A DNA stretch of 63,891 nt, filler included, from Stramenopiles sp. TOSAG23-2 (GCA_900128395.1; 37 parts of 37 records of this genome joined end to end with filler, not necessarily neighbours in it), one strand, 5' to 3'; positions 3,484-63,891 are shown, numbered from the whole stretch's first letter. The notes: a model not told the origin generated them from the sequence alone. Numbers and translations are program-made.

Positions 3484-5124
3484 TAAGTGGTGAATTGATG
3501 TTTAGTACAGGTACTACATCATGTGGATCATCTGGATCGATATCAATCGGTACTGGTTCGGCATGCAATGGTAAAGGTGGTGATATTACAATGAGTCATT
3601 TACGTTTTGGTCCATCTCCACACATGCCTGAATACGAAATTCAACAAGGTGCGGATTATATTGCTTGCGGTAACACTAGTTATGTAAGAAAATTCGATAT
3701 GATTAAAACCATTAAAAATGGTGGAGTTTTCGTTTTAAATACGCCATGGGACGTAGCTCAGTTGGAGGAGGAATTGCCTTTAAAAATGAAGAAAACGATT
3801 GCTGAGAGGAATTTGGAATTTTACACCATTGATGCTACCAAAGTTGCAAAGGAAATTGGTCTCGGACAACGTATTAATACGGTAATGCAAGCTGTATTTT
3901 ACCATTTATCCGGTGTTTTGCCAAAAGAAGAGGCAGTTCAACTTTTAAAAGATGATATTGTCAAATTGTATACGAAAAAAGGACCTGATGTTGTTGCGAT
4001 GAACCATAAAGCAGTTGATAGTGCAGTTGGTGCGTTGACCAAATACCCTGTGCCTGCAGCTTGGAATGATATCACACCTGATATGTATGAAATTAGCTAT
4101 GGTAGTGGAGTTGCAACGCCAAATGTTCCTACAAGTGAAACCAGCGGAATTGCCATGCCAGTCCTTGGAGATAGGTTGGATAAAGGAAAGGTTCCGTTTG
4201 ATGATCCTACTACGTTTGTAGAAGAGATTATGGACCCCGTATTGGCATTAGAAGGCGATGCTTTGCCAGTTAGTACATTCACCCCTGGTGGATATATGCC
4301 TGCAGCAACTACTCAATTTGAAAAACGTGGTATTGCGCCAGAAGTACCTGTTTGGATCGCAGATAATTGTACTCAATGCAATTATTGTGCAATTGTCTGC
4401 CCACATGCTGTTATTCGCCCGTTCCTTTTCGATAAACAAGCTCAAGGTATGAAACCAGATAATTTTGTCATGAAAAAAGCGCAAGGTGGAGCGGAGTTGG
4501 CTGGTTATCAATATTCCATCAATTTAGCAACAATGGATTGTACTGGATGTGCAGTTTGTGTAGAATCGTGTCCAGATGAAGCGTTATATATGGCAGATTT
4601 TGTTGAAAATGCACCAGCTGAAGTTGAAAACTGGGAATTTGCATTGAAACATGGTAGCAAAGACAACCCAACTGATAAATTTACAGTAAAAGGCTCTCAG
4701 TTTGAAACACCATTGATGGAATTTAGTGGAGCATGTGCAGGATGTGGAGAAACTCCATATGTCAAGTTAATGACACAATTATTTGGCAATCGTATGATGA
4801 TTGCAAATGCATCTGGATGCAGTTCCGTATGGGGTGGTACGTCTACCACGAACCCGTACACCGTTGACGAAGAAGGCCGAGGTCCAGCTTGGGGTCGTTC
4901 ATTATTCGAGGACAATGCTGAATATGGTTTGGGTATGGCAATTGCTTCCTTACAACGCCGTAAACAACTCCGAGAGAAAATACAAGGCATTGTAGATGGG
5001 GAAACAGAGGTTAGCGATGCGTTAAGAAAAGAATTTGATGCATGGTTGAAGCATTATGATAATGCTGAAAAAAGCGACCAAGCATTCAAGCGTATTATCC
5101 CAATCCTTGAAGAGGAAAAAGATG
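3484..5124 (+). CDS. PFO: Pyruvate:ferredoxin oxidoreductase / pyruvate:NADP+ oxidoreductase, internal fragment (first ~35 aa probably chimeric)
   Basis: TMSHLRFG; two 4Fe-4S motifs CTQCNYCAIVCP and CTGCAVCVESCP; FSGACAGCGETPYVKL, ANASGCSSVWGG and WGRSLFEDNAEYGLG. Confidence 0.96.
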
Positions 5125-11868: not shown

Positions 11869-12237
11869 CTATCTATATATCTATATATCTATCAACCATA
11901 TTATGCATTGAAAATAATATAAGTCGTCTTTTGTTATGATATTAATAATAATGGTAATACATATATATACCAATACCAATATCATCTGATTATTCATTAT
12001 TGTGCTATTATTATTCCTTGTAAATAAGACGGATGAAACTCTCCTAAAAACAGGCGTGGTCTAATTAGTACAGATTTAGTATNNNNNNNNNNNNNNNNNN
12101 NNNNNNNNNNNNNNNNNNNNNNNNNNTTAATTAATTAANNNNNNNNNNNNNNNNNNNNNNNNNNNNNNNNNNNNNNNNNNNNATCATTACTATTAGTAGT
12201 ATCATTATTATTGTTATGATCTGATAAAAATTGATTT

Positions 12238-12588
12238 GGTAATGAATATTCAAATGGATCAGAACCTGTAGCAACTGCTAAATGAAAATTTGGTTCCAAT
12301 GCCAACGCTGAAGCAAGTGCAATGAAATCTGCAGATGCTGCATGTATATATTTCCCCAATTCATTTTTTGGTAATCCTGCACCACAATGGCAAGCACTCA
12401 TTGTATGATCCATATCAAATACAATACATTTAATATTATTCTTTTTTAAAAATGTAATAAATTGTTGAATCCATATGTTGTTGTTCTGATTTTTCTTCTT
12501 TTTTTTCTCTTCTTGTTTATTTTTATTATTATTTCGCATTAATGTATATATAAAACCAGTTGCAGCAGTAATTATATATTCCATCATA
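12238..12588 (-). CDS. HAD-superfamily hydrolase, 3'-truncated
   Basis: IKCIVFDMDHT (DxDxT motif I) and LAVATGS (motif II). The last ~18 aa come from a fold-back artefact. Confidence 0.7.
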
Positions 12589-13137: not shown

Positions 13138-13821
13138 ATGCTCTCAGCAGAACATTTAGCATTGGAAAATGAAGCGGTAAGACAATTATTAGCAATACGT
13201 GAAAAGGAAATACAATTTTTTACGGATAGATTTAATGCCATTTCCACCCAAAGTGCTTTAATAGCAGGGTTTGTGATTACCAGTCTTACAGCCGTGCCAC
13301 TACAAGGTCAACCAGGTCATGAAGCTTTAGAATCAGTATTTCTCATTTCTGGTGCATTGAGTATGATATGTTGCTTTTATTCATTGTTGTGTAGCACGAT
13401 GGCGGGTATTTGGGGGCCATCTTTGTCTTTACGAGGACCAAATGGCTCTGTAACAAAAGCATGGTATGAATTGAAAAAAGAATCCAAACAAATCATGATA
13501 TCGTATTTGAGTTCTATTGTATTTTTTGCCATACATGCTGGTTGTGCTTTTTTCTTAATCGATTACGATGATAAATGGACATCGTCTTGGATTGCAACAA
13601 TTATTGTCCTGCTCGGGGTATTTTTAATTTTAGTTAAATTATATTTCGTCAAAAAACGTTTAAGTTTTGATAGTACAAAGAATGCACTTGATGATACAAT
13701 AATCAGACCAGAATTTCCATCTTCAAATGTATCATCACCACAACAAATGGGAGCACCATTGTTACAAAATCAATTTTTATCAGATCATAACAATAATAAT
13801 GATACTACTAATAGTAATGAT
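13138..13821 (+). CDS. Four-TM membrane protein (Orai/PGG-like family), 3'-truncated
   Basis: QSALIAGF in TM1, four hydrophobic helices, WGPSLSLRGPNGS loop. Confidence 0.6.
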
Positions 13822-17398: not shown

Positions 17399-19034
17399 GA
17401 AGTTGATTTGTCACTTGGTGCTCGTAAATTATTTGAAGATGGATTAAACCATGAAATAATTAATAATTCAAAAGTTTTCATACCATTAAAATATCAAACT
17501 ATGATGGAAGCATCGGCATATGGTGGGTTTGAGCTTGCAATAGGATATTGTCATTTACATGGACTTGGTAATTTTGACAAAGATGAGAAAAAAGGATATA
17601 ATATAATTAACAAATACATTAAGACTAACAAAGATGATAGTTTGGCACAATATTTAATGGCTGCTATGTATTATTATGGTCGTGGTGTTACACAGGATTA
17701 CAAAAAATCAGTTGAATGGTATACAAAATCAGCAGAACAAGGATTTGCACCTGGTCAAAATAATCTTGGTTGTATGTATCAAAATGGTGATGGTGTTACA
17801 AAGGATTACAAAAAAGCAGTTGAATGGTATACAAAATCAGCAGAACAAGGATATGCAAGTGGTCAATTTAATCTTGGTGGAATGTATTATCATGGTCAAG
17901 GTGTTACAAAGGATTACAAAAAAGCATTTGAATGGTGTACAAAAGCAGCAGAACAAGGAAATACATGTGGTCAATTTAATCTTGGTTTAACGTATCACAA
18001 TGGTGATGGTGTTACAAAAGATTACAAAAAAGCAGTTGAATGGTATACAAAAGCAGCAGAACAAGGATATGCACGTGGTCAATGCAATCTTGGTTACATG
18101 TATCGAAATGGTCGTGGTGTTACAAAGGATCTCAAAAAAGCAGTTGAATGGTATACAAAAGCAGCAGAACAAGGAAATGCACGTGGTCAATGTAATCTTG
18201 GTTATATGTATGAAAATGGTCATGGCGTTACAAAGGATCTCAAAAAAGCAGTTGAATGGTATACAAAATCAGCAGAACAAGGATTTGCACCTGGTCAGCA
18301 TACTCTTGGTGTAATGTATGAAAATGGTAATGGTGTTACAAAGGATTACAAAAAAGCTGTTGAATGGTTTACAAAATCAGCAGAACAAGGATATCCAGGT
18401 GGTCAATATAATCTTGGTACAATGTATGAAAATGGTTATGGTGTTACAAAGGATGACAAAAAAGCAGTTGAATGGTATACAAAAGCAGCGGAACAAGGAC
18501 ATGCACAGGGTCAAAATAATCTTGGTTATATGTATCAAAATGGTTATGGTGTTACAAAGGATGACAAAAAAACAGTTGAATGGTATACAAAAGCAGCGGA
18601 ACAAGGACATGTAAGTGGTCAATATAATCTTGGCGTAATGTATGATACTGGTTATGGTGTTACAAAGGATGACAAAAAAGCATTTGAATGGTATACAAAA
18701 TCAGCAGAACAAGGATATGCACTTGGTCAATATAATGTTGGCGTAATGTATGATAATGGTCGAGGTGTTACAATGGATAAAGCGAAAGCTGTTGAATGGT
18801 ATACAAAATCAGCAGAACAAGGATATGCAGATGGTCAATATAATCTTGGTAGAATGTATGATAATGGTAATGGCGTTACAAAAGATTACAAAAAAGCACT
18901 TGAATGGTATACAAAATCAGCAGAAAAAGGAAATGCATGTGGGCAATACAATCTTGGTGAAATGTATTATTATGGTCAAGGTGTTACAAAGGATTACAAA
19001 AAAGCAGTTGAATGGTCTACAAAAGCAGCAGAAC
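17399..19034 (+). CDS. Sel1-like repeat protein with 13 tandem 36-aa repeats, truncated
   Basis: 108-bp units with consensus A.GQ.NLG.MY..G.GVTKD.KKAVEWYTKSAEQG. Confidence 0.97.
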
Positions 19035-21206: not shown

Positions 21207-22503
21207 TTGACAAAACAAAAAAAAAACAACCAAGAAACGAATATAAAAGTTGACGGCCAAATTATAAATCAGTTGAAATCAGATAAATATTTGGTACAGA
21301 TTTTAAAACGTACACCAGTGGATCGGTATCACATTTACAAAACATTTATAGATAATTATATAACGACAGAAGCAAAACGACAGCAAACGAAAGCTATCTC
21401 TGTAATTGAATTAAATAATGAGGCATATGAATTTTCAACACAATTGGCATTAGAAATGACAGAAGAAAATTTAACCAAAGTACCATATGAACAAGGACTA
21501 CATCGATTTAGACAAGAAAGTCGGTGGAAACTATTTTTAGGTGAACGTGGCGAAGCAATGGAAATGATACGTCGTGTCGCACCAATACAAAAACGTAAGT
21601 ACAAACTCAATTTTATAAAAATTGTAAAGTGTTACAATACATACTAACTGCATTTTAATACTTCATTTTCACTTAACTGGTTATCTACAAATGCAGGTGT
21701 TGGTATAATTTCGTTCATACATAAATCGGTGCAAGAATATTTAACGGCATCGGAAGTAATACGCGCTATTTCAAATGCATGCGATGAAACCTTGATGTCA
21801 TTAGATGAATTAAATGCATTCGTTACAAAAGTCGAAACGCTAAGACAGGGTGGATATAAAGTGCAAGACAATATTCGGCAAATGGAACGTAACAAAGTAG
21901 CAAGTAATATGGCAAATGCTATAATTAAAATGGATACTAACAAAGTTGCAGAAACAAGAAAAAAATGGAAAGATTTGAAAGATCGGAAAGCCATTGCGCG
22001 TAAGAAAGTAAAGGAATGGGAAGCGTTATGTGAGAAACAAAATGGATCCAAACCAACTAAAAGCGATAGAAAAAAGGTTGCCAATTTGTATAAAGATGCA
22101 AAAGCTATTTCTTCACAATTGAAATTAACAGAGACAGAATTGCAAAAACTAGAGCAGGCATATACGAGTACAAATAATTCAGCAAAGGATTGGAAATTAC
22201 ATAAAAAATATGTTGGGAATAGTAAGCGTTTAATTGATATGTTTCTTGCGATTGAGCGTTCGCCATTGAATCGAATATTTATTGGTGGAGAGGAAGCAGT
22301 ATTAGACTTTTTAGTGGATTGTATGGTTGGCGAAAATCCTTTGATAGCACATATGATGGATATAGTTGGAAGAGTTACTACAATTGGACATGTATTTGGT
22401 AAAGATGATTTAGATATGGTAAAGGATAATATGCGAGATTTATTTATTACCAATTTGCCGAAACGAGATAATGTTGGAACGTTGTTTCACGAAGCAGCAA
22501 CAG
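21207..22503 (+). CDS. NACHT/STAND-type protein, post-NTPase HD1/winged-helix region; exons ~21207-21594 and 21697-22503, truncated
   Basis: Splicing joins two ORFs and gives SFIHKSVQEYLTA (NACHT winged-helix F.H.S.QEYL.A motif). Upstream RYHIYKTFI and FSTQLALEM resemble HD1. Ends in the ankyrin-like GTLFHEAA. Confidence 0.72.
21595..21696 (+). other. Spliceosomal intron, 102 nt
   Basis: GTAAGT, TACTAAC at 21642-21648, TGCAG; phase 1 with the frame preserved. Confidence 0.85.
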
Positions 22504-24337: not shown

Positions 24338-25234
24338 GAAGTTTATGTCGTTTTCCATCTGAATTATTACCAGAGCACATTGTTGCATCTGGGCTAACTA
24401 TGTCATAACAAAAGCAACGATATTTAATTAAATTGGCATTGTGTAAGACTAATTTTGCAGTTAGGTCTACTGTTTTAAATTGTTTTTGTTTTACAGAATA
24501 GCCATCATCCACAACCTCTATCTCATCGCTTAGCATATATGTTATAACACCTTCTTCACCTCTATATTTTTCCTCTGCATGTGCGTATACTGCTTTTTTG
24601 CCAACGTTGCGAACTTTCTCAAATGGTAATTTAGCATTTGGTAAACATAATAATTTTCTTACTTTTTGACTAAACAATACATTTAATCTATATTTTCCAG
24701 GGTATTTTCGATTTTCTAATAATAAATTATATTGATCCAACTCAGCTTTTATACTGCTTTTTTGCCAACGTTGCGAACTTTCTCAAATGGTAATTTAGCA
24801 TTTGGTAAACATAATAATTTTCTTACTTTTTGACTAAACAATACATTTAATCTATATTTTCCAGGGTATTTTCGATTTTCTAATAATAAATTATATTGAT
24901 CCAACTCAGCTTTGACATTGTTATCAACATTTATCCAAGCTATTAGTTCTGCGCGGTCAAAAGTTTTATCAGAACCACCAATTACCATTCTTAAAACATA
25001 TTGTTGTGCGGTTTCTGATAAGGATTGAAAAATTGCCTTGACACTCCATACATTTGTATATATTGATATTTTTTTCCCTCTCGCCTCTGGTGAAAAAAAA
25101 ATGCCACCACGTTTTACAAAGCAACGCTTCACAAAGTCAAAAATATTTTTTGGCTTTTTCATTTCTCGTCTTTTCGAATCTTCCATTTCAGTAGTATCCA
25201 TTTGTACCGCCGCTGCTTTTAACATGGACGTCAT
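24338..25234 (-). CDS. TFIIH subunit p52/Tfb2-like N-terminal region, broken by a 164-bp tandem duplication (24586-24913)
   Basis: IY..VWSVKAIFQSLSETAQQYVLRM...L.AWI...YRLN..F...VRKLL resembles the Tfb2 N-terminus. Removing one duplicate joins ORFs 24749-25234 and 24282-24740. Confidence 0.55.
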
Positions 25235-25470: not shown

Positions 25471-25752
25471 TATCTATATATCTAGACGACCACATAGATC
25501 ATATGTTTACTTCAATATATATATATATCTTTATTATTTAAATTTTTTTGTGTTTTTTTCGAGGTGTTCATTCAATTTTATTATATTTTAAAAAATAAAA
25601 AATCTTCGATTTATCTATATATCTAGACGACCACATAGATCATATGTTTACTTCAATATATATATATATCTTTATTATTTAAATTTTTTTGTGTTTTTTT
25701 CGAGGTGTTCATTCAATTTTATTATATTTTAAAAAATAAAAAATCTTCGATT
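25471..25752. repeat. 141-bp tandem duplication (likely artefact)
   Basis: Two identical adjacent copies. Confidence 0.85.
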
Positions 25753-26091
25753 TGATAGGTATATTTTGTACTTAAATAACACAACACTAGGAAAATGCAT
25801 TTTTCGTTGGTTTTTTTTTGCATATATTAGTGTGGCTATAATAGGATAATTTAATAATAAAAAATCGGATATTCTGATAATTTTCATCAAATGAACCATA
25901 TTATTGGTTATTTTTTGATTTTATTGACACATTATTTATCGCAACATATATTGCACCTATATATAAAAAGTNNNNNNNNNNNNNNNNNNNNNNNNNNNNN
26001 NNNNNNNNNNNNNNNTTAATTAATTAANNNNNNNNNNNNNNNNNNNNNNNNNNNNNNNNNNNNNNNNNNNNTAAAAGAAATTTATATAATA

Positions 26092-26159
26092 TATGAGTAA
26101 GAGAACATTTTATATATATATTATATGATATAGGCACATAAAATGTTCTCTTACTCATA
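26092..26159. repeat. Palindromic repeat element (TATGAGTAAGAGAACATTTTAT and its inverse)
   Basis: 22-bp inverted repeat. The core ATGAGTAAGAGAA also occurs near 10730, 53015 and 53226. Confidence 0.75.
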
Positions 26160-27901: not shown

Positions 27902-29429
27902 TTACATCGCAACGACATATTTATTAGTAGCGTCATCTTTTTTGTCACCATCTTTAACATCTTCACCAGTTGTATTTTTCGATGTATTTGTCTTTTCATA
28001 ATTATAATCCTCAGGATATACGATATGCTTTGTATTCATTATATTTGAAGATATAAACATTTGATTTGATGATGGAGAGGATATATTTTTTTTCCGGATG
28101 GATGATCTTCTTTTCGATGGTGATAATACCGATGAAGATGCTAACATTTCTGATAATCTTGAAGGCTTTGCAAGCATTATATTTGAAGATATAAACATTT
28201 GATTTGATGATGGAGAGGATATATTTTTTTTCCGGATGGATGATCTTCTTTTCGATGGTGATAATACCGATGAAGATGCTAACATTTCTGATAATCTTGA
28301 AGGCTTTGCAAGCACTGGTGGCATTACATCATGTTTTGAAACTTCGGAAGTTGGTTCCCAATTAAGTTTTTCATATTCTACATTATTTGTTATCTTAACA
28401 TGTTTCCTACCATAATCATTCGGGTTAATATATGAGGGGTCCTCGTCAATTTCTTCTACTTTTTTGCCTTCATCAATATCCTTTTTTTTACGTACCATCT
28501 TTTTCTTAACTTTCTTCTTACGTTTTTTTTTCTTCATCTTCGTACTTTTTGTAGACATCACGCTGGATTTACCTTCTAACAGATTGGTATTGCGATTAGC
28601 CATATGAATATAATCAACATCATGGCATGTTTGATATGATTCATCATAATGCTTTTGAGCAATTGACATATTTGCTACAAATGTCATCATTTGTCCAGGC
28701 TTTAATGCTGAAGATAAAACCTGTGTCAAAGGGGAATTGCGAATTGGTAATGATCGCTTAGCTTTCCCAGTTGGAAAAGCATTTAATCTGGCTTTTGCTA
28801 AACACTCTAACAACGCAGATTGATTACTATGTCCTCCGCTCGATGCAGTTTGATCCGTGTGACAGCATTCCACGAAATAATATTTACCAGTCTTCTCTTC
28901 ACCTTCAGACAATCGATCACCACGTACATCCCATCTATCGCTAACTCCAGTAATTTTACATTGAATTAAATATATTGTTGTTAATCCTTCCATTTCCAAT
29001 GTATCGCGTGCTAAATATCCACGATAACATTCATTTAAGAAAGATTTATAATTTTTTGTTTCAGTAACTACTAAATCGTCTGGCCAATACGACTCTTCTT
29101 CAGGACTCCATCTCAACGCTTTTGGTTCTGTTGGATTTAAACTTAGCATATCATACGCAACTGGTATTGATGTGTCATAATCATTCACAACCATGATGGA
29201 AGTAACTACTAAATCGTCTGGCCAATACGACTCTTCTTCAGGACTCCATCTCAACGCTTTTGGTTCTGTTGGATTTAAACTTAGCATATCATACGCAACT
29301 GGTATTGATGTGTCATAATCATTCACAACCATGATGGACAAACTGGTGACAATATTTGTTTGTTCGTATAGACCTCGGTGACTAACTTCTTTAAAGATAT
29401 AGCTAATAGCGCGTGGAAATATCCCATCA
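27902..29429 (-). CDS. Highly divergent kinesin-motor-like protein, 5'-truncated, with two 138-bp tandem duplications (28037-28314, 29063-29338)
   Basis: LPIRNSPLTQVLSSAL..G.MMTFVANMS....YDESYQT matches kinesin HIPYRDSKLT.LL..SLGG...T.MIANISP....EETL.T. The switch II position reads KYYFVECCHTD. Confidence 0.65.
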
Positions 29430-29727
29430 NNNNNNNNNNNNNNNNNNNNNNNNNNNNNNNNNNNNNNNNNNNNTTAATTAATTAANNNNNNNNNNNNNNN
29501 NNNNNNNNNNNNNNNNNNNNNNNNNNNNNCATGTACGCATAATTTATTTTTTAATTTTTTACTCATGATACGGGCGGATGGTTCGTAATTTTTTACTCTT
29601 TAAAAGAATAACGTACAAATAACTGAGGAGGCAATAAATATCTACGAAGTATGTCACACTATATGATCTTAATATTCTCATAAAAAGGAGAATGTCAATG
29701 AAGGTTAAATATAGTTGGTATCACAAA

Positions 29728-31103
29728 TTAAATAGGGTATGAACCTAGTATCGTTGCCCTATGCAATATTCTCAATCCATTTTTGGCACCTTCTTGATTC
29801 CCAGCTTGTCCTGCCCGATGTGCTAATGCTAAATTATCAGTCACAACTATATCGCCTTTAGACCAAACATGCACGTAATTATTTCCTTCTTCCGAGCAAA
29901 CTTTTTGTATTTCTGACATTATATAGCTAATTTCCTCTTTATCAATTTTTTGCAACACTTCAACATCCATCTCATCGTCTTTCTTATTGTATATGAAATA
30001 ATTTAAATGAGGTATCCATCGTTGTATATCATTATCCCAAATCGCAGAATTCTCATCTAATTTTATATTACCTAATTTCCCAGACACTATTTCTCTTAAA
30101 TCGTTTAAACCGCCTAGTTGAAAAATGGCTTGACCAGTTTCAGGATGATCGTACAATAATGGATGGTATATGCCAGTTACTGTGGAGCATAGCGTAGGAA
30201 GAGTACGTGTTTTGTTAGAGCAAAAATACACTAAAAATGCAAGCCCGCATGTAAGAGATCATATATATAGAAGATCAATAGAAAAAGAACATATATTTTT
30301 AAAGGAACTTTCTTTTTCGGTTTAGGGAAGTAAAATTTGACTTACCATCCGATGTACCAATCATATTATACATTCTATTTACAAATTGAAAATTTTTAGA
30401 AGCCATAACACTCACGACTTTATTCTGTAGAGCGTAGTGTATAAATGGGTCATGTGTTAGAGAGGATATCCTTTTTTTTTTTTTAGTCTAAGGGGGAATA
30501 TAGTAATTATTTACTTACTAAATGAGCATATTGCGTATTACCCCCCTGTGGTGTTTCGACGATTTGATAAACAGCATGTGAATATCCATTTTGCATGAAA
30601 GAGCCATCGTTATGCCATCCTACACTGCCTAAACCATTTGGTGTATAACAACCAATCTCAGGGTTATTTGAGACACGAAAAACATCTTTATGCTCACATT
30701 TTGGATGTACCCTATGTGCACTATGGATTTCCCCACTACCAAATAATTTAGCAAATTGAAGTAAATTAACTGCAGACATTACTTTCCTATTGCCTTCCAC
30801 TTTTCCATACTTTTGTTTCTCATCATCTTTAACAAATTGCTCTTTGAAAACCAATATTTTATATGTACGAACTAGGTAATTCAAATGTTGCCTTATGACT
30901 TCCATTTTCGTTGCTCCGTCTTCACTAGTATTCTTATTTGTTGCTGATAATACATCATTAACTATGTCCAACTTACGAATAACTACACCAAACGTCTCAT
31001 CATTAGTTAGGGGCTCTACAAAATATGTGGCCTGTTTTGGAATTAAATATTTATTTTTTTCCTGAAATTTCTTCTCATTATCATTTAAACGTACTTTTGA
31101 CAT
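29728..31103 (-). CDS. TauD/TfdA-family 2OG-Fe(II) dioxygenase; exons 31103-30519, 30424-30346, 30179-29728
   Basis: WHNDGSF, GGNTQYA, HPLL..HPETG, HVWSKGDIVVTDNLALAHRA and RILHRATI. Two GT-AG introns give one continuous frame. Confidence 0.92.
30180..30345 (-). mobile_element. TauD intron 2 (166 nt), diverged member of the same intron family
   Basis: GTAAGT...TTCCCTAAACCGAAAAA at the 5' end and CTCTAACA...CTATGCTCCACAG at the 3' end; phase 1. Confidence 0.6.
30425..30518 (-). mobile_element. TauD intron 1 (94 nt), putative Introner-like element
   Basis: GTAAGT...TATTCCCC...A-run...GATATCCTCTCTAACACAT...CATTTAT...TACGCTCTACAG; collinear with the GH35 intron. Confidence 0.75.
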
Positions 31104-31257
31104 GATAGCATTACTGTTTTTATTCTTGTGTTACATATATATATATATATATATACGNNNNNNNNNNNNNNNNNNNNNNNNNNNNNNNNNNNNNNNNNNN
31201 NTTAATTAATTAANNNNNNNNNNNNNNNNNNNNNNNNNNNNNNNNNNNNNNNNNNNN

Positions 31258-31468
31258 ATAACCAATCTTGTAATATCTCCCAATTATCATTGATTTCTTT
31301 GTAATTCCCGATGAAAAAATATGGCATAGGTTGTGGTATTTTATGTCGTTTAAAATATGAATTTGGTGCAGCAATAAATACATATAAATATATGATAATA
31401 AATAAACATATACTTAATAAAATGATGGATGTGGTGGATAATGTTTCCAATATGATGGATACAAGCAT
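31258..31468 (-). CDS. Cytochrome P450-like N-terminus (membrane anchor + Pro-rich hinge), truncated
   Basis: Hydrophobic anchor followed by YFKRHKIPQPMPYFFIGN. Confidence 0.6.
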
Positions 31469-32183
31469 TATTATTTTTGCTTTTATAATAAAAAAAATAA
31501 ATGAAGGTTTTGTATATATAACTTGTTGTTGTATAATTTGTTATTGTTGTTGTTGTTGCTCAATCGATGTTGATCGTTCGTTGAATATATATATATATAT
31601 ATATATACAATTTCTGCGTTTCAACTTTCTTTCTACGTCCTTAACTATTTGTATACCATTTATACCATTGTAAAAGGGTGCAAGGAAATGAAAAAAATAA
31701 ATGTCATTAAAAAACAATATGATATAGCACTATATAAAAAGTTAAACAGAAAAAGTTTTTAAAGAAACACACAAAACACTTCTTTGTTTAAACATGTCTC
31801 TCTGCATTTACATTCATAAATTGTCCGCTCTGAAACTACAGTAAACACTCTCTCTCCTCATTACACACCCAAAACACCCAGAGAGTTCATAGTCTTGTTG
31901 ACGACTGATTACACTTCCTCTTACTTATAGCAATATATATATCCTCTGTTCCATTTTTTAATTATTATCATCATATATAATATGATAACACGTTGTCAAA
32001 ATTACGCGAGACAGTATGTAAAAAAAAAACAACCCCACACATATACACGGTTATAATTTCATACCTCCCTTTACGTAAAGTACACCATATCCTACATCAT
32101 CACACGTATTTCAGGTGATGAACTAAAAATTGCACTTCATCGTTGTGGATGCCATATTATAATTCCCATTCAATATAATACGT

Positions 32184-32884
32184 TTACCTCGATCGACCAC
32201 CACCACCACCACCACCACGTGCTTGTTGCAAACCATGAACTACACCAAGTCCTTCACATAAATCAACAACAATTGTTGTATCATTCTCACCACCAGTACC
32301 ACGTTGTTTTTTAGATAAATATTCTAATTCACGTTGAAAATCTTCAATACTGCCACGATTACGTTTAAAACCAATGTTGGATAAACCTTTTTGTGCTTTT
32401 TTTACTAATTTATCTTTTTTTATTGATAATGCTATGAATTCTGCTAGACGATAATTAAATGCTCGGCGTTCACGTATTTTATTTGATTGTCGATAATATT
32501 CTTCTAATGAACGTTGATCTTCCGTACGTCGTATTTTATCACGTAAACGATTATCAAATGTTCTACCAGAATTGCCTTTACCAATATATGCCTCTGCAAC
32601 AAATGTTTGAAAGGTTTTATTATTTGTGAAAAAATCACCATATTGTACAGCTTCATCAAAATATGGTACACCTTCTCCACGCGTTAAATGGCAATTGCCT
32701 AATTGTATATTTGCTTGACATATTAAATAATGAAACCGTTCTTGTTGTTCCATATAATACTGACGTCGATCTTTTTCCTTATCAAAATTAGATTTATGAC
32801 TTTCAATTTCCAATGCCATATGAAAGATTTCATGTGCTAATTTAATGGCATGTTTTAAATATGCTACACGTTGTTCATCCCGTA
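32184..32884 (-). CDS. Helical (TPR-like) protein C-terminal fragment
   Basis: Open from the contig edge; QANIQLGNCH and AEAYIGKGN helices. Confidence 0.5.
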
Positions 32885-33039
32885 NNNNNNNNNNNNNNNN
32901 NNNNNNNNNNNNNNNNNNNNNNNNNNNNTTAATTAATTAANNNNNNNNNNNNNNNNNNNNNNNNNNNNNNNNNNNNNNNNNNNNATTTTCATCTCCATAA
33001 TATTCAGTATCGCAGACTCGTGAACCCCATTTAATTTTT

Positions 33040-33197
33040 TTTCTTTCCTCTCCACCTTGTATGAATTTGCTTAATTTCTTAATTAATGTACTTTTTCCAA
33101 AACCATTTGGACGTAATAAATAAAACTTTGAACCAGGTATTAATAATTTCGCTATACCTTTCGTGGAATCAATGGAGAAAAATTGTTTCGCGTTCAT
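33040..33197 (-). CDS. AAA-ATPase-like (PF09820-type) N-terminal fragment
   Basis: IDSTKGIAKL...FYLLRPNGFGKSTLI resembles YVDKT..I..L...YFL.RPRRFGKS. Confidence 0.65.
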
Positions 33198-33692
33198 CCT
33201 GTGTGGTTGACAATGATGATAGAAAGATGATGGATAAGGATGATGGATATTTTGTATAGAACGATATAGAGAGAGGTTTATGCATGTTTATCCAATGTGA
33301 ATATTTTTTCATATTATTATTTTTGAAGATTATTTATTATTTTATTATTTTTTGTTGGGGGGGGGGGCAAAAGTTTTTTCATCATCCCTTACAATATCAT
33401 TTTTCATATTATTATATGTATGATATTATACTGTTGATCACTTTTTAAGGATAGCTGGATAGGAAAAGTTGACAGATTAAGATGAGGAGGAGGATGAAAA
33501 AAGCAGCAACAAAAGATCGCCGCCGTCTCATCAATTTAATAAATTGAAAAATTGAATAATTGTACATCTCTCAGAGATATGTGTGTGTGTGTAAAGGTGT
33601 CATAACTATACATATATATATATATATATACTTATATATATATCCTTCCATATAACAACAACAACAGCAAGCAAACAGTTCAATTTTTTATC

Positions 33693-34610
33693 ATGGCATC
33701 AATATCCTCCTCTTCCTCAGGTAACAACAATACTGAATATGGTGAAGTTGTATTTAGTGGAGAACAAGGAATAGATAATAATAATAATGATGATGATGAG
33801 AATAAAAATGGTAATAATGTAGCACCACCACCAGGAAAACCACCAGCAACACAGCAGAACACAGTTACTTCCAATACTCCGTCTAAAACATATTATCCCG
33901 TAGAAAATGGAAGAAAATTATCTTCATCGTTACTTTGGGAATTACAGCGTGAATTTTATGAAGAGCAAAATGTCAAGGCATGGTCAAAAAGTTTAGTGCC
34001 ACATTTCGTCTCGTCAAATGCGTATTTAGCACATTGTTACGCTCGTTTAATTATTGCATATGCAACAGACGTATATAAAAAAGACCCATCGTTTAATTAC
34101 AACGATCCGCCAGAAAATACATTGAAATATTTCAATATTATTGAAATCGGTGCAGGACACGGTAAATTTGGATACCTCGTTTTGCAGAAATTAGTACGAT
34201 TGCGAGAATTTTGGCCTAGGGAAAATTGTTTTAGGTATATATTGACAGATTTTGTTCAAGATACAGTCGATTTTTGGGAAAAAAATGAATCTTTTTTAAA
34301 TTTTTTTAGAACTGGTTTGTGTGATTATGCAAAATTTGATGCAGAGAAAGATACAGAAATTGTATTGCAACGGGCTGGGCATGTTTTGGATTTAAAAAAT
34401 GCACCTAATTCTATATTTATATCAAATTATGTCTTTGATACATTGAGACAAGATGCATTTCGTATTCAAAATGGCAAGTTGGAAGAAATTTTATGTTCAG
34501 TATTTTCAGAAACGGAAAATGATAGTTTAAAAATTAAAGGCTTAATGGATCGTTTAAAAATTAAATGGGGTTCACGAGTCTGCGATACTGAATATTATGG
34601 AGATGAAGCG
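33693..34610 (+). CDS. SAM-dependent methyltransferase, MidA/NDUFAF7-like fold, 3'-truncated
   Basis: IIEIGAGHGKFG (motif I), YILTD, ISNYVFDTL.QDAF; N-terminal SLLWELQREFY..AW...VPHFVSSN. Confidence 0.8.
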
Positions 34611-34710
34611 NNNNNNNNNNNNNNNNNNNNNNNNNNNNNNNNNNNNNNNNNNNNTTAATTAATTAANNNNNNNNNNNNNNNNNNNNNNNNNNNNNNNNNN
34701 NNNNNNNNNN

Positions 34711-35343
34711 AACTTGCACCATCAATATAGGATTAAACTCCTCAGCATCATTTATATACAAAAATGGTTTGATCACTTGCGGCAAGATAACATCCATCCA
34801 TTTTGTAACGTGACTAATATATGGCTCTGCGTAAGTCCTCAACTGAATTGTTCCATTAGATAACAACCATGCAGGAAAACCACCAAATTCCCACTCTCCG
34901 CAGACGTACGGCCCGGGCTGTGGAACGTACCGAATAAATGAGGAATAATGTGTTAGAGAGGATATCAATTTTTTTTTAGGTTTAGGGGAATAGAATGTAC
35001 TTACTCGAATTAATGCATACATTTTTCTATCTTTGATTATCTCCAAAAAGTACGTAACATTTTTGCCTTTAGTCGTAAAATCATAGACGTTGTGTTCAGT
35101 TTCATGGTAGTTCCAAGGTATGTAGAATTCAACTGCGTTAAAGCCGAGAGACAATAGACGGTCTAAGTTTTCTTCCCAATACTCTGGGGGAGTTCGAAAA
35201 TAATGCATATTACCAGATAATATTCTAATAGGTTTATTATTTATCATAAATTGATTATTTGATATTGTAAATAAAGATGATGTTGATGCTAATAATATTG
35301 AAAAGAAAAATAGTATTATTGTTGTCATCATATGTACGTCCAT
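34711..35343 (-). CDS. GH35 beta-galactosidase with signal peptide, truncated; intron at 35004-34918
   Basis: ILSGNMHYFR, YIPWNYHE, and after splicing LIR|PGPYVCGEWEFGGFPAWL; PILMVQV. Confidence 0.95.
34918..35004 (-). mobile_element. GH35 intron (87 nt, phase 0), putative Introner-like element
   Basis: GTAAGTACATTCTATTCCCCTAAACCTAAAAAAAAATTGATATCCTCTCTAACACATTATTCCTCATTTATTCGGTACGTTCCACAG; splits the conserved RPGPY motif. Confidence 0.8.
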
Positions 35344-35810
35344 GTTACAAAAGTTTAATCCTTTACAATATTATTCTTTTGTTGGGTAACATAATTTATA
35401 ATTCTTATATATTTATATAAGGATATTTAAATATGCGCAGTAGATCGATTATAGATATATACAAAGATTGATGAGAAGAAGAGCATCGCAAGAGTATACA
35501 TGTAATAATATTAATATATATATGGAAGATTTGAAGAAATTATATAAAAAAAATTAATAAATAAATCCATAATAAGGAGTCATGTATCATGTGCTCATGA
35601 CTATGTGCTATGTGCTCGTCTTTTTCTCTCTGCTTTAGCTTTCTTCTTCTATTCTCTACCTACCAGGTTAAGGTATTATTATACCAGGTAAAAAAAAATG
35701 TAGAAGAGAAGAAAAACCGCAAACCGCACTCTTACTGTATTGGACTTATTATAATCATATTATTATTCGACAAAAATATTTATAATAATAGTCTATTAAC
35801 AAAATCATTT

Positions 35811-36335
35811 TTAGTATCCACCACCATGGCCTCCTCGTCCTCCCCTTCCACTTGATGAGCGTGAAAAGTTATTATTATTATTATTGTTTCCACCGCGTCC
35901 ACCACCACGGCCCCCTCTGCCACGTCCTCTTCCTCGTCCTCTACCTCGTCCTCCTCTACCACCACGTCTGTTATTATTACCACGTCGATTATTATTATCT
36001 TTTTTTAAAATTTTATGCTTTCGTTCACTTTGTGGTAAACTCAGCTCTTTCAATTCCTCTCGATATCTTTTTAACATTCCCATTAAATAAGCATTGTAAT
36101 TAGTTATCTGCTTATCTTCGCTTTCATTTTGTTGTTTATGATCTAATGTTTCTCCTAAATCTTTTAAAATTTCTACAACAACTTTATATGGAAATGTACA
36201 TAATGCATCGATATTACGTTCGTCTAATTTATCATATAATTCTGCCAAGTCTTCATTATCATCATTACGATTTTGTTCAATTAAGCTTGTGATTAATTCC
36301 CTGACTTCGCGTTGGATTTTTTCACCTTGTATAGC
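35811..36335 (-). CDS. RNA-binding protein fragment: hnRNP-Q/R acidic (NURR)-like domain + RGG tail
   Basis: LDERNIDALCTF...ITNYNAYLMGMLKRYR resembles LDERA..AL..F...NKSAFL.GVMK.YR; RGG repeats follow. Confidence 0.7.
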   Translation of the reverse strand, partial: AIQGEKIQREVRELITSLIEQNRNDDNEDLAELYDKLDERNIDALCTFPYKVVVEILKDLGETLDHKQQNESEDKQITNYNAYLMGMLKRYREELKELSLPQSERKHKILKKDNNNRRGNNNRRGGRGGRGRGRGRGRGRGGRGGGRGGNNNNNNNFSRSSSGRGGRGGHGGGY

Positions 36336-52874: not shown

Positions 52875-53160
52875 ATGTTGGTTTATAAAAGAGCGCATTG
52901 TACAAGGAATATATTCATACAATATATAATTTTCTTCTTCAGAAATATATATATATAAATGAGTATTTGATTTGAGATGTTAATTTCCGGGGGTAAAAGA
53001 AATTTATATAATACATGAGTAAGAGAAAATTTTTAAATAATTAATATATAATTTTCAAATAATACGAACCGTAAAAAAAAATATATACAAGTACGTTCGT
53101 ACGAAATATAAAAATATAATTTTTAATTTAATATATATATATATATATATATATATTTGA

Positions 53161-53334
53161 AGAGTAGGAATTATCATGAGTAAATTAAAAATAAATTATG
53201 CGTAAACCTATTATATCATATACATATGAGTAAGAGAAAAATACATATATATGAGAACTCTCGTGATGAGATATATATATAGATTTAATTTACGCATAAT
53301 TTATTTTTAATTTACTCATGATAATTCCTACTCT
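53161..53334. repeat. MITE-like element with 46-bp inverted repeats
   Basis: 53161-53206 is the exact inverse of 53289-53334. The same arm occurs at ~63466-63511 and partly at ~29534-29569. Confidence 0.75.
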
Positions 53335-53682
53335 CATACTTCGTACTTCGTATATATATACTTCGTCGTATATTACAGTATCATTCTAATTACACATTAC
53401 ACACACACTCTCATATGTACATATATTACTCGTAGATATTATATACAAAACTCATGTTCGTATCATTTTTTGGTGATTTTACGCAAAAAAATATACATAA
53501 TGATACTCGTATATTTCATGCTTTTCGCCCCACAAACACGGCGTGAAGGTAATCCAGATAATCACTTCCATNNNNNNNNNNNNNNNNNNNNNNNNNNNNN
53601 NNNNNNNNNNNNNNNTTAATTAATTAANNNNNNNNNNNNNNNNNNNNNNNNNNNNNNNNNNNNNNNNNNNNTAATTAAAAAA

Positions 53683-62671: not shown

Positions 62672-63891
62672 AAAAAAACTGTGTTTTTTACAAAAAATAT
62701 ATATACGAAAGTTCGTTGTTAATTTTTCTCTAGATGTTTTAAAAAATGTTTTCGTAATTGTGTGCATGTGCTTTTTTTTTATTATAAATAAATGATTTAA
62801 GATTCTATAACCGTACTAATAATATTTTTTTTTATTGCATTTTTTGCCTCGCCGCTTTGCTTAAAAAGAATTTATTAAGGATCCTAAACTAATACACCAC
62901 ACATTATTATTAATAGATCTATTACTAAAATTACAGGAGTACAAGCACACATTTCTTAGATCTAACAACTCATCCTACCACTAGCTATTAATATAATATA
63001 TTTTACTGGAATCCATGCCTGGCATGCATCACATCCAACGTTGCCAACCATCAATCATCAGAAAATCGTTATTATTATTATTTAAATTATTACAGTAAAA
63101 CGTATCCAATAATTAAAATGAATAAGTGTTAGTCACACATGATGATGTGATGCGCGTCATATCAAATATATATTATAATATTATTTTTTTAATATATACG
63201 AACCGCTTCGTATATATATATATAATTAAGTTCAAAAGAATACAATAACTGAAATAATCTATCTCACACTAGTGTGTTGATATACCCATAATACAGAATA
63301 CCAATGAAGGTAAATAGATGGTAGCAGTTGATGAAAAACAAACATATATATATATAATATATACTCGTATATATAAAAATAATTACATATGTATTTTCGA
63401 TTATGAGAATATCAACACACTACACTTGTGTGAGATAGATTATTTCAGTTATTTTATTCTTTTGAAGAGTAGGAATTATCATGAGTAAATTAAAAATAAA
63501 TTATGCGTAAATTAAATTATATATTTTTATCATTTAAATTATCATATGTGAGTAAATTATTACGAATGCGTATAATTATATTAGTCTTATGGAGATTTTG
63601 TATTCTGTGTGGGCGGTAGGGTGGAGTATTGATAAATTTTATTTAATCTAACTTTAAGATTTCATTTAATTATATTAGTCTATAAATATATATGAGAATT
63701 ATATGCATAATTAAATTTAAAAACTATTTTTATATTTTTTGCTTTTTAAAAATATTTCATATAGTTTTTACATATTATATTTTACTTTTTTTTACCACCA
63801 CCACCACTACCGCCTTTTCCTCGCAATTTGTTGTAGATTTCTAATCGTTGTGAAGCATCAATTACTTGTCCTTTTCGCTGAACTTTATATG

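Follow-up and report, generated by a model that had tools for sequence, protein, structure and literature searches.

A candidate introner family of short, scar-free introns in the uncultured marine eukaryote Stramenopiles sp. TOSAG23-2

A stretch of 63,891 bases made up of sequences from the assembly of Stramenopiles sp. TOSAG23-2 (GCA_900128395.1) was analysed and is referred to below as the window. It consists of about 37 scaffolds of about 1.6 kb each, sorted by descending length and separated by linkers of the form N44-TTAATTAATTAA-N44, and its GC content is about 29%. Because the scaffolds were joined by linkers, genes that are neighbours in the window are not neighbours in the genome. 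Two unrelated genes of the window, TauD and GH35, carry introns that resemble each other over their entire length, and the same intron recurs in other unrelated genes on public metagenome contigs. These introns very probably form an introner family, in which many non-homologous genes of an AT-rich and gene-dense marine eukaryote have received copies of one short, self-contained spliceosomal intron; the probability of this reading is put at about 0.88. The repeated unit extends exactly from GT to AG, and its pattern of insertion is scar-free, sense-only and indifferent to target and phase.

The original prediction, made from the window alone, had defined two introns in TauD and one in GH35 on separate contigs. 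Their coordinates and strand are correct (Table 1), and the two genes do lie on different linker-joined scaffolds. The first TauD intron and the GH35 intron had been described as collinear end to end, which is borne out by an alignment from GT to AG with 75.6% identity over 90 columns (E value of 2e-10 against the whole window). Both contain an identical sequence of 19 bases (the 19-mer) that includes the CTAAC branch site. Even with up to three mismatches allowed, the window contains just these two occurrences of the 19-mer, against an expectation of 0.01, and none of 100 shuffled sequences gave two matches. The names given to the host genes also stand, as Pfam profiles match over the exons; the match to the TauD domain is weak but consistent over two exons, and that to GH35 is strong.

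The 87 nucleotides (nt) of the GH35 intron contain no in-frame stop codon, so that read-through is possible in principle. The 29 residues that read-through would add are an insertion relative to all six distant homologues, placed exactly between R and PGPY. A GH35 protein of the same species, encoded on another contig, loses its reading frame inside the intron.

The second TauD intron, which had been predicted to be a relative with a longer middle, probably belongs to the family too, on weaker evidence than the other two. It matches the family consensus at 29 of 34 positions at the 5' end and at 36 of 45 at the 3' end, which is above the values for five non-family introns (21-24 of 34 and 22-32 of 45). 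Between these ends lie about 85 extra AT-rich nucleotides, and a profile search with nhmmer returned the two halves as collinear matches (E values of 0.065 and 0.11). The public gene model of TauD, P0004, has the same first intron, but it ends the second intron at an upstream AG (30345-30231) and thereby keeps 17 additional residues. The 3' end typical of the family favours the downstream acceptor at 30180 as the predicted splice site. When the TauD model was aligned to PDB entries, the homologues were too distant to choose between the two acceptors.

Further copies beyond the window, on which the prediction of a wider family depended, were found by scanning public contigs for the 19-mer. The scan retrieved contig loci named L001 to L025, of which 24 come from metagenome contigs and L025 from prokaryote genome contigs. 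The same GT..AG intron of about 79 nt is present in 20 of the 24 metagenome loci. When strain variants are merged, these 20 loci reduce to 14 separate insertion sites, including that in TauD, and the contigs that bear the intron have at least eight different accession prefixes. The other four metagenome matches (L006, L019, L021 and L022) are chance matches in unrelated sequence, and so is L025, the sole match in prokaryote genome contigs. A profile built from the copies was then applied with nhmmer to 234,481 bases, the non-redundant part of which amounts to 148,676 bases (about 149 kb) and is not randomly sampled. The search recovered three additional sites without the exact 19-mer (L010 2670-2740, L015 2976-3057 and L001 9880-9960). 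This brings the clear sites to 18, of which the window contributes two and 13 non-redundant loci the other 16, in addition to two or three degenerate, expanded copies. Several of the loci overlap window scaffolds almost identically (L009 at 99.8%, L015 at 98.9% and, for the TauD scaffold, L003 at 97.7%), which places the loci in the same species or population. The TauD scaffold itself is represented in marine and seawater sequencing data, both metagenomic and metatranscriptomic, from 12 studies, a record that concerns the occurrence of the DNA only. The idea of a viral vector was rejected, as three family motifs had no matches in viral contigs.

The family consensus is 79 nt long; its splice signals are GTAAGTA at the 5' site and CACAG at the 3' end, and the CTAAC branch site lies 32 nt from the latter. 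The branch-site A is found at exactly this distance in nine of the 18 copies (range 14-37). The copies are 76-99% identical to the consensus, and one natural copy (L014:1624-1702, minus strand) matches it at 78 of 79 positions; between copies, the median pairwise identity is 78% (range 60-95%). Variant 5' splice sites are GCAAGT (L001), GTAACG (L015), GTATGT (L011) and GTTAGT (L008). The 5' half of the family intron (consensus positions 17-33 approximately, for example 34972-34988 of the window) contains two adjacent CCTAAA units in the stretch CCCCTAAACCTAAAAAA. These units recall the C strand of plant-type telomere repeats; the data contain no telomere arrays for comparison.

Removal of a copy restores both the predicted reading frame and the protein-domain profile, and by this measure the element behaves as an intron. 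In the copies examined, the frames are open on both sides once the copy is taken out. Pfam profiles continue across five of the copies, at positions 82|83 of the GH35 profile, 157|160 of FAD_binding_3, 94|97 of Sulfatase, 61|65 of SGL and 87|97 of adh_short. Comparison between strains points in the same direction. The first TauD intron measures 94 nt in the window and 96 nt in a second strain (L003), the second TauD intron 166 and 168 nt, and a further copy 91 and 131 nt, none of these differences being divisible by three. Over the 200 nt that flank such length-variable introns on each side, the strains are 97.5-100% identical; for the first TauD intron the flanking exons match those of L003 at 199 of 200 and 197 of 200 positions.

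The edges of the copies are clean. When the copies were aligned together with their flanks, every copy showed similarity from the G of GT to the G of AG, with unrelated flanks. Target-site duplications were sought with the test described in PMC9860276, in which the first eight bases of the intron are compared with the first eight of the downstream exon, and the last eight of the upstream exon with the last eight of the intron. Over the 16 positions, no systematic excess over the expectation between copies was observed (the largest gaps were 6 versus 3.0 and 7 versus 4.0), and flank-to-flank repeats of 3 nt or more are present in only one of 18 copies. There are no terminal inverted repeats in the family copies, so the original remark that neither kind of mark is visible holds over all 18. 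Nor do the flanks show a base preference, a target motif or an AG|G proto-splice site, with mixed bases at -1 and +1. Predicted RNA folding gave minimum free energies of 0 to -3.2 kcal/mol, not better than shuffled sequences (z of 0.5-1.4), and no hairpin. The sense strand of the intron contains only 9% G, which makes self-complementarity nearly impossible. Beyond the splice signals the family has no conserved termini, and a longer relative was not found in the profile search of 234 kb.

The hosts of the family are unrelated to one another and comprise, besides TauD and GH35, an FAD monooxygenase, a sulfatase, an SMP-30/gluconolactonase, a short-chain dehydrogenase, an actin-related protein, a methyltransferase and a DUF7605/PDZ protein. 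All 18 copies lie on the sense strand of open reading frames (ORFs), and the profile search gave no antisense match. Sequence outside ORFs of at least 80 codons makes up 25% of the non-redundant bases and contains none of the 18 copies. The original prediction had suggested inspecting the family for phase bias; the insertions are divided 6/6/6 over the three phases.

Several genes have received more than one copy. In TauD, the two introns are 79 nt apart; in L015 (2976-3168) two family introns, both of phase 1, surround an exon of 30 nt, and the spliced frame is open through both. Two copies in L010 are separated by 167 nt, and L008 has one clear copy and two decayed ones. In L001 the copies are 953 nt apart and lie in paralogous dehydrogenase domains, at positions that differ by nine codons and in different phases. 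No copy has its closest relative in the same gene; the closest relatives are in every case near-consensus copies. This pattern, together with the offset in position and phase of the L001 pair, looks like the result of repeated independent hits rather than of local duplication. We infer that a consensus-like source gave rise to the insertions, each independently of the others.

Once inserted, the copies accumulate substitutions and AT-rich expansions and come to look like ordinary introns. The copy in L016 is that of L002 with 40 extra bases, and a stretch of L008 (3326-3090) has a good 3' half with 38 of 45 consensus matches. Taken together with the second TauD intron, these expanded or decayed copies indicate that members lengthen and blur into ordinary introns.

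The introns outside the family provide the necessary comparison. Convincing examples (window 21595-21696 and 51180-51086, L020 3650-3549, L014 1172-1067 and L002 9871-9572) are 95-300 nt long, versus 79 nt for the family consensus, and have only the splice signals in common with it. In the sample, which is biased towards the family, there are 18 family introns versus about six to eight convincing non-family introns, and a dominance of one family in the intron gain of this lineage is therefore only suggested. The original estimate that three of six defined introns in the window belong to one family is only approximate, since the in-silico scan for window introns is noisy. Two of the non-family introns (L014 1067-1172 and L020 3549-3650) have long (CA)n runs just 5' of the 3' splice site.

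It could be argued that no mobile family exists, and that the shared blocks are an extended splice and branch-site consensus of the lineage, held by selection for efficient splicing. The most conserved stretches do include the 5' splice site, the branch site and the 3' end, and GTAAGT-like, CTAAC and CAG signals are common to all introns here. However, the similarity is full-length and includes the stretches between these signals, and one copy is nearly identical to the consensus throughout (78/79). Non-family introns that are equally well equipped with GTAAGT, CTAAC and CAG share nothing else and give no match to the profile at E values up to 10. Since convincing non-family introns share only splice signals, a generic motif of the lineage, against which the original prediction had to be set, is ruled out, and a consensus maintained by selection is highly improbable. 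Still less credence is given to a similarity that arose by duplication of genes or domains, by gene conversion between paralogues or by chimeras in single-cell or metagenome assemblies. Exact tandem and inverted duplications of an artefact-like kind do occur in the window scaffolds, and the L001 copies lie in duplicated dehydrogenase domains. Yet the latter are offset by nine codons and differ in phase, the hosts come from different Pfam families, and unrelated flanking sequence reaches all the way to the GT and the AG. The same insertions are found, at 95-99.9% identity, in contigs with at least eight accession prefixes, and the copies are 60-95% identical to each other rather than 100%.

Several observations weigh against the reading of these elements as an introner family, or limit how far it can be taken. 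Thirteen of the 18 sites were found by means of the 19-mer, which inflates its apparent conservation, so that its perfect conservation is partly an effect of ascertainment; the three sites found without it still retain 16-18 of its 19 bases. Protein searches with TauD and GH35 yielded no spliced, transcript-derived form: for TauD only a cluster of genomic ORFs was returned, and for GH35 one ORF of the same species and distant homologues of at most 41% identity. The sole TauD protein that spans the junction is the gene prediction P0004, which is no evidence of splicing. An orthologue from a sister taxon was not found among these matches, the closest GH35 relatives being no more than 41% identical. 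No presence/absence polymorphism was seen either, as the intron is present in both members of all nine strain pairs (9/9), which gives no direct sign of current mobility. One copy (L017 3947-4025, minus strand) ends one base ahead of the ATG with which the downstream exon and its ORF open, and its upstream frame of 43 codons has no methionine; this copy may lie in a 5' untranslated region rather than in coding sequence. Finally, any figure for the number of copies, or for the proportion that are intergenic or antisense, derives from 149 kb of non-random sequence.

Classical DNA transposons have also left traces in this genome. A repeat resembling a miniature inverted-repeat transposable element (MITE), with inverted terminal arms of about 55 nt, is located at 53159-53336, with partial copies at 63464-63533 and 26072-26132, and at L007 1589-1720 and L015 4463-4566. 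It occupies AT-rich non-ORF sequence at several loci. Relics of classical DNA transposons therefore exist in the genome and, unlike the intron family, are situated outside genes.

For the mode of spread, a route at the level of RNA is tentatively favoured over a scarless DNA element, at somewhat less than an even chance. Along this route an excised intron would be reinserted into another transcript by reversal of splicing, the intron-bearing transcript would be reverse-transcribed to complementary DNA (cDNA), and the cDNA would recombine into the gene. A yeast study discusses the chemistry of the intron-lariat spliceosome in connection with intron transposition (PMC10996645), and families without scars in fungi have been interpreted as RNA-based (PMC9860276). 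What bears on the present case is that none of the 18 copies is outside ORFs and none is antisense, while the classical MITE sits in non-ORF sequence. The minimal, unstructured intron of 79 nt, its exact GT..AG unit, the lack of duplication and target motif and the restriction to the sense strand may possibly be the imprint of reverse splicing, reverse transcription and recombination, a more specific claim that is held with less confidence than the preference for RNA as such. Two points count against an RNA route: DNA elements, too, are known to insert preferentially in genes, and the marks of DNA transposons are borne by most introner families outside the fungi (both PMC9860276).

The competing explanation, which is considered a real if lesser possibility, is that the family spreads as DNA. 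It might be a tiny non-autonomous element moved in trans by an enzyme that causes no duplication and can do without inverted repeats, or the intron cDNA might be captured at chromosome breaks, with selection keeping the sense copies in genes. That introners outside the ascomycetes mostly carry DNA-transposon marks speaks for this, and so do the "direct insertion" families that have neither mark (PMC9860276), the 72% of 1,093 families that could not be classified (PMC12130899) and the DNA-type MITEs of this very genome. Selection alone also predicts that only sense copies survive inside genes. In non-ORF sequence, however, either orientation should survive. If insertions fell at random in place and orientation, with loss of the genic antisense ones alone, about 40% of the surviving copies would be expected outside ORFs, and the observed 0/18 has a P of ~1e-4 by our own calculation on a small, non-random sample. 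The absence of a preference for A|T or any other target, of a hairpin and of conserved termini beyond the splice signals also tells against a DNA element, as does the failure to find a longer relative within 234 kb.

Introners are the only known explanation for bursts of intron gain, and for most families no mechanism is known (PMC12130899). One survey of 3,325 genomes, 520 of them partial genomes from Tara Oceans, reported 548 families in 175 genomes, with a 6.5-fold excess in aquatic organisms (PMC9860276). A later one counted 1,093 families, spread over 201 species, and left about 72% of the families unclassified (PMC12130899). The phenomenon is thus already known, and the present family adds a small, scar-free case. 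As judged from the sequences, it has several of the features by which introners are recognised: the hosts are not paralogous, the similarity is bounded by the intron-exon junctions, and the coding sequence is restored when the copy is removed. Earlier descriptions already include families that lack duplications and inverted repeats, as well as units of 64-115 nt (PMC9860276). Like such families of Gozashti et al., the one reported here consists of near-identical introns in unrelated genes, carries both splice sites within the unit, is short and resides in an aquatic protist, a group in which such families are common. It differs from them in its host, which is an AT-rich, uncultured marine eukaryote. 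MAST-4A, whose compact genome has 33.9% GC and 0.56 introns per gene (PMC5269757), would fit as the lineage of this host.

The introner-like elements of fungi (van der Burgt 2012, via PMC3609843), for which reverse splicing has been proposed, offer another comparison. They also lack target-site duplications and terminal inverted repeats, are genic and sense-only, and degenerate towards ordinary introns. In contrast, they are longer than regular introns, whereas the present family is as short as these or shorter (79 nt versus 95-300 nt), and they have stable predicted structures where the present family is unstructured (PMC3609843). Their hosts are fungi, which the organism studied here, as far as can be told, is not. 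With the MITE-type introners that Huff et al. (2016, via PMC9860276) described from Micromonas and Aureococcus, the family shares a short, non-autonomous form, a host among marine picoeukaryotes and, probably, the creation of introns on a genome scale. In those elements, duplications of 3-9 bp supply one of the splice sites and many have inverted repeats (PMC9860276), neither of which applies here. Introners derived from Helitrons insert at A|T or TT|TC and have a 3' hairpin, and the present family has neither. A further parallel, drawn from description only, is Parmales sp. 'scaly parma', a marine plankter of stramenopile type in which a single family seems to dominate recognisable intron gain (PMC12130899).

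The value of the family lies in its being near the smallest conceivable case, with a 5' splice site, a branch site and a 3' splice site on an unstructured, G-poor spacer with clean edges. A unit so minimal with edges so free of scars offers a sharp test case for intron gain at the RNA level versus the DNA level, and a demonstrated RNA route would raise the interest of the family. It would then represent a natural, non-fungal instance of intron transposition in an abundant marine plankter, and the decayed and expanded copies would suggest that one family built much of the small intron set of the lineage. On the practical side, a single 19-mer and metagenome contigs alone suffice to recover the introner family of an uncultured plankter. 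Gene callers mis-model family introns, as in the acceptor of intron 2 in P0004, and probably do so for decayed members; a family profile would improve annotation.

Table 1. Positions in the window of the TauD and GH35 introns, exons and scaffolds, and of example linkers.
Feature	Position	Strand	Remarks
TauD intron 1	30425..30518	-	94 nt, phase 0; 76% identical to the 79-nt consensus; nhmmer E 6e-15
GH35 intron	34918..35004	-	87 nt, phase 0; 84% identical to the consensus; nhmmer E 1e-17
TauD intron 2	30180..30345	-	166 nt, phase 1; probable degenerate member with an AT-rich expansion of the middle
19-mer core with CTAAC branch site, TauD intron 1	30452..30470	-	
19-mer core with CTAAC branch site, GH35 intron	34948..34966	-	
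TauD exon 1	30519..31103	-	starts at ATG; TauD profile positions 27-130
TauD exon 2	30346..30424	-	79 nt, flanked by two family introns
TauD exon 3	29728..30179	-	ends at the stop codon
GH35 exon 1	35005..35343	-	Pfam Glyco_hydro_35 profile positions 1-82
GH35 exon 2	34711..34917	-	profile positions 83-146; runs off the scaffold end
TauD scaffold	29530-31157		separate piece
GH35 scaffold	34711-36335		separate piece
Example linkers	1643-1742, 31158-31257, 34611-34710		N44-TTAATTAATTAA-N44

Some other properties of the window concern the scaffolds rather than the introns. Exact tandem duplications of 138-196 nt are present in several scaffolds (24586-24913, 25471-25753, 29063-29338 and 618-1008), and perfect inverted copies of 52-60 nt are found at scaffold ends (32988-33039 with 34556-34607, and 12183-12242 with 13762-13821). 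Both kinds of duplication look like artefacts of assembly or amplification rather than biology. An Rfam scan of the window gave no family that reached the gathering score. The scaffold at 3484-5124 has a GC content of 40.8%, compared with 29% for the window, and encodes a fragment of pyruvate:ferredoxin oxidoreductase with POR, EKR and 4Fe-4S domains. Either a conserved gene belonging to the organism itself or foreign DNA could account for it. At 17399-19034, a single ORF contains 13 Sel1 repeats with a tandem unit of 108 nt, the DNA copies of which are 85-88% identical.

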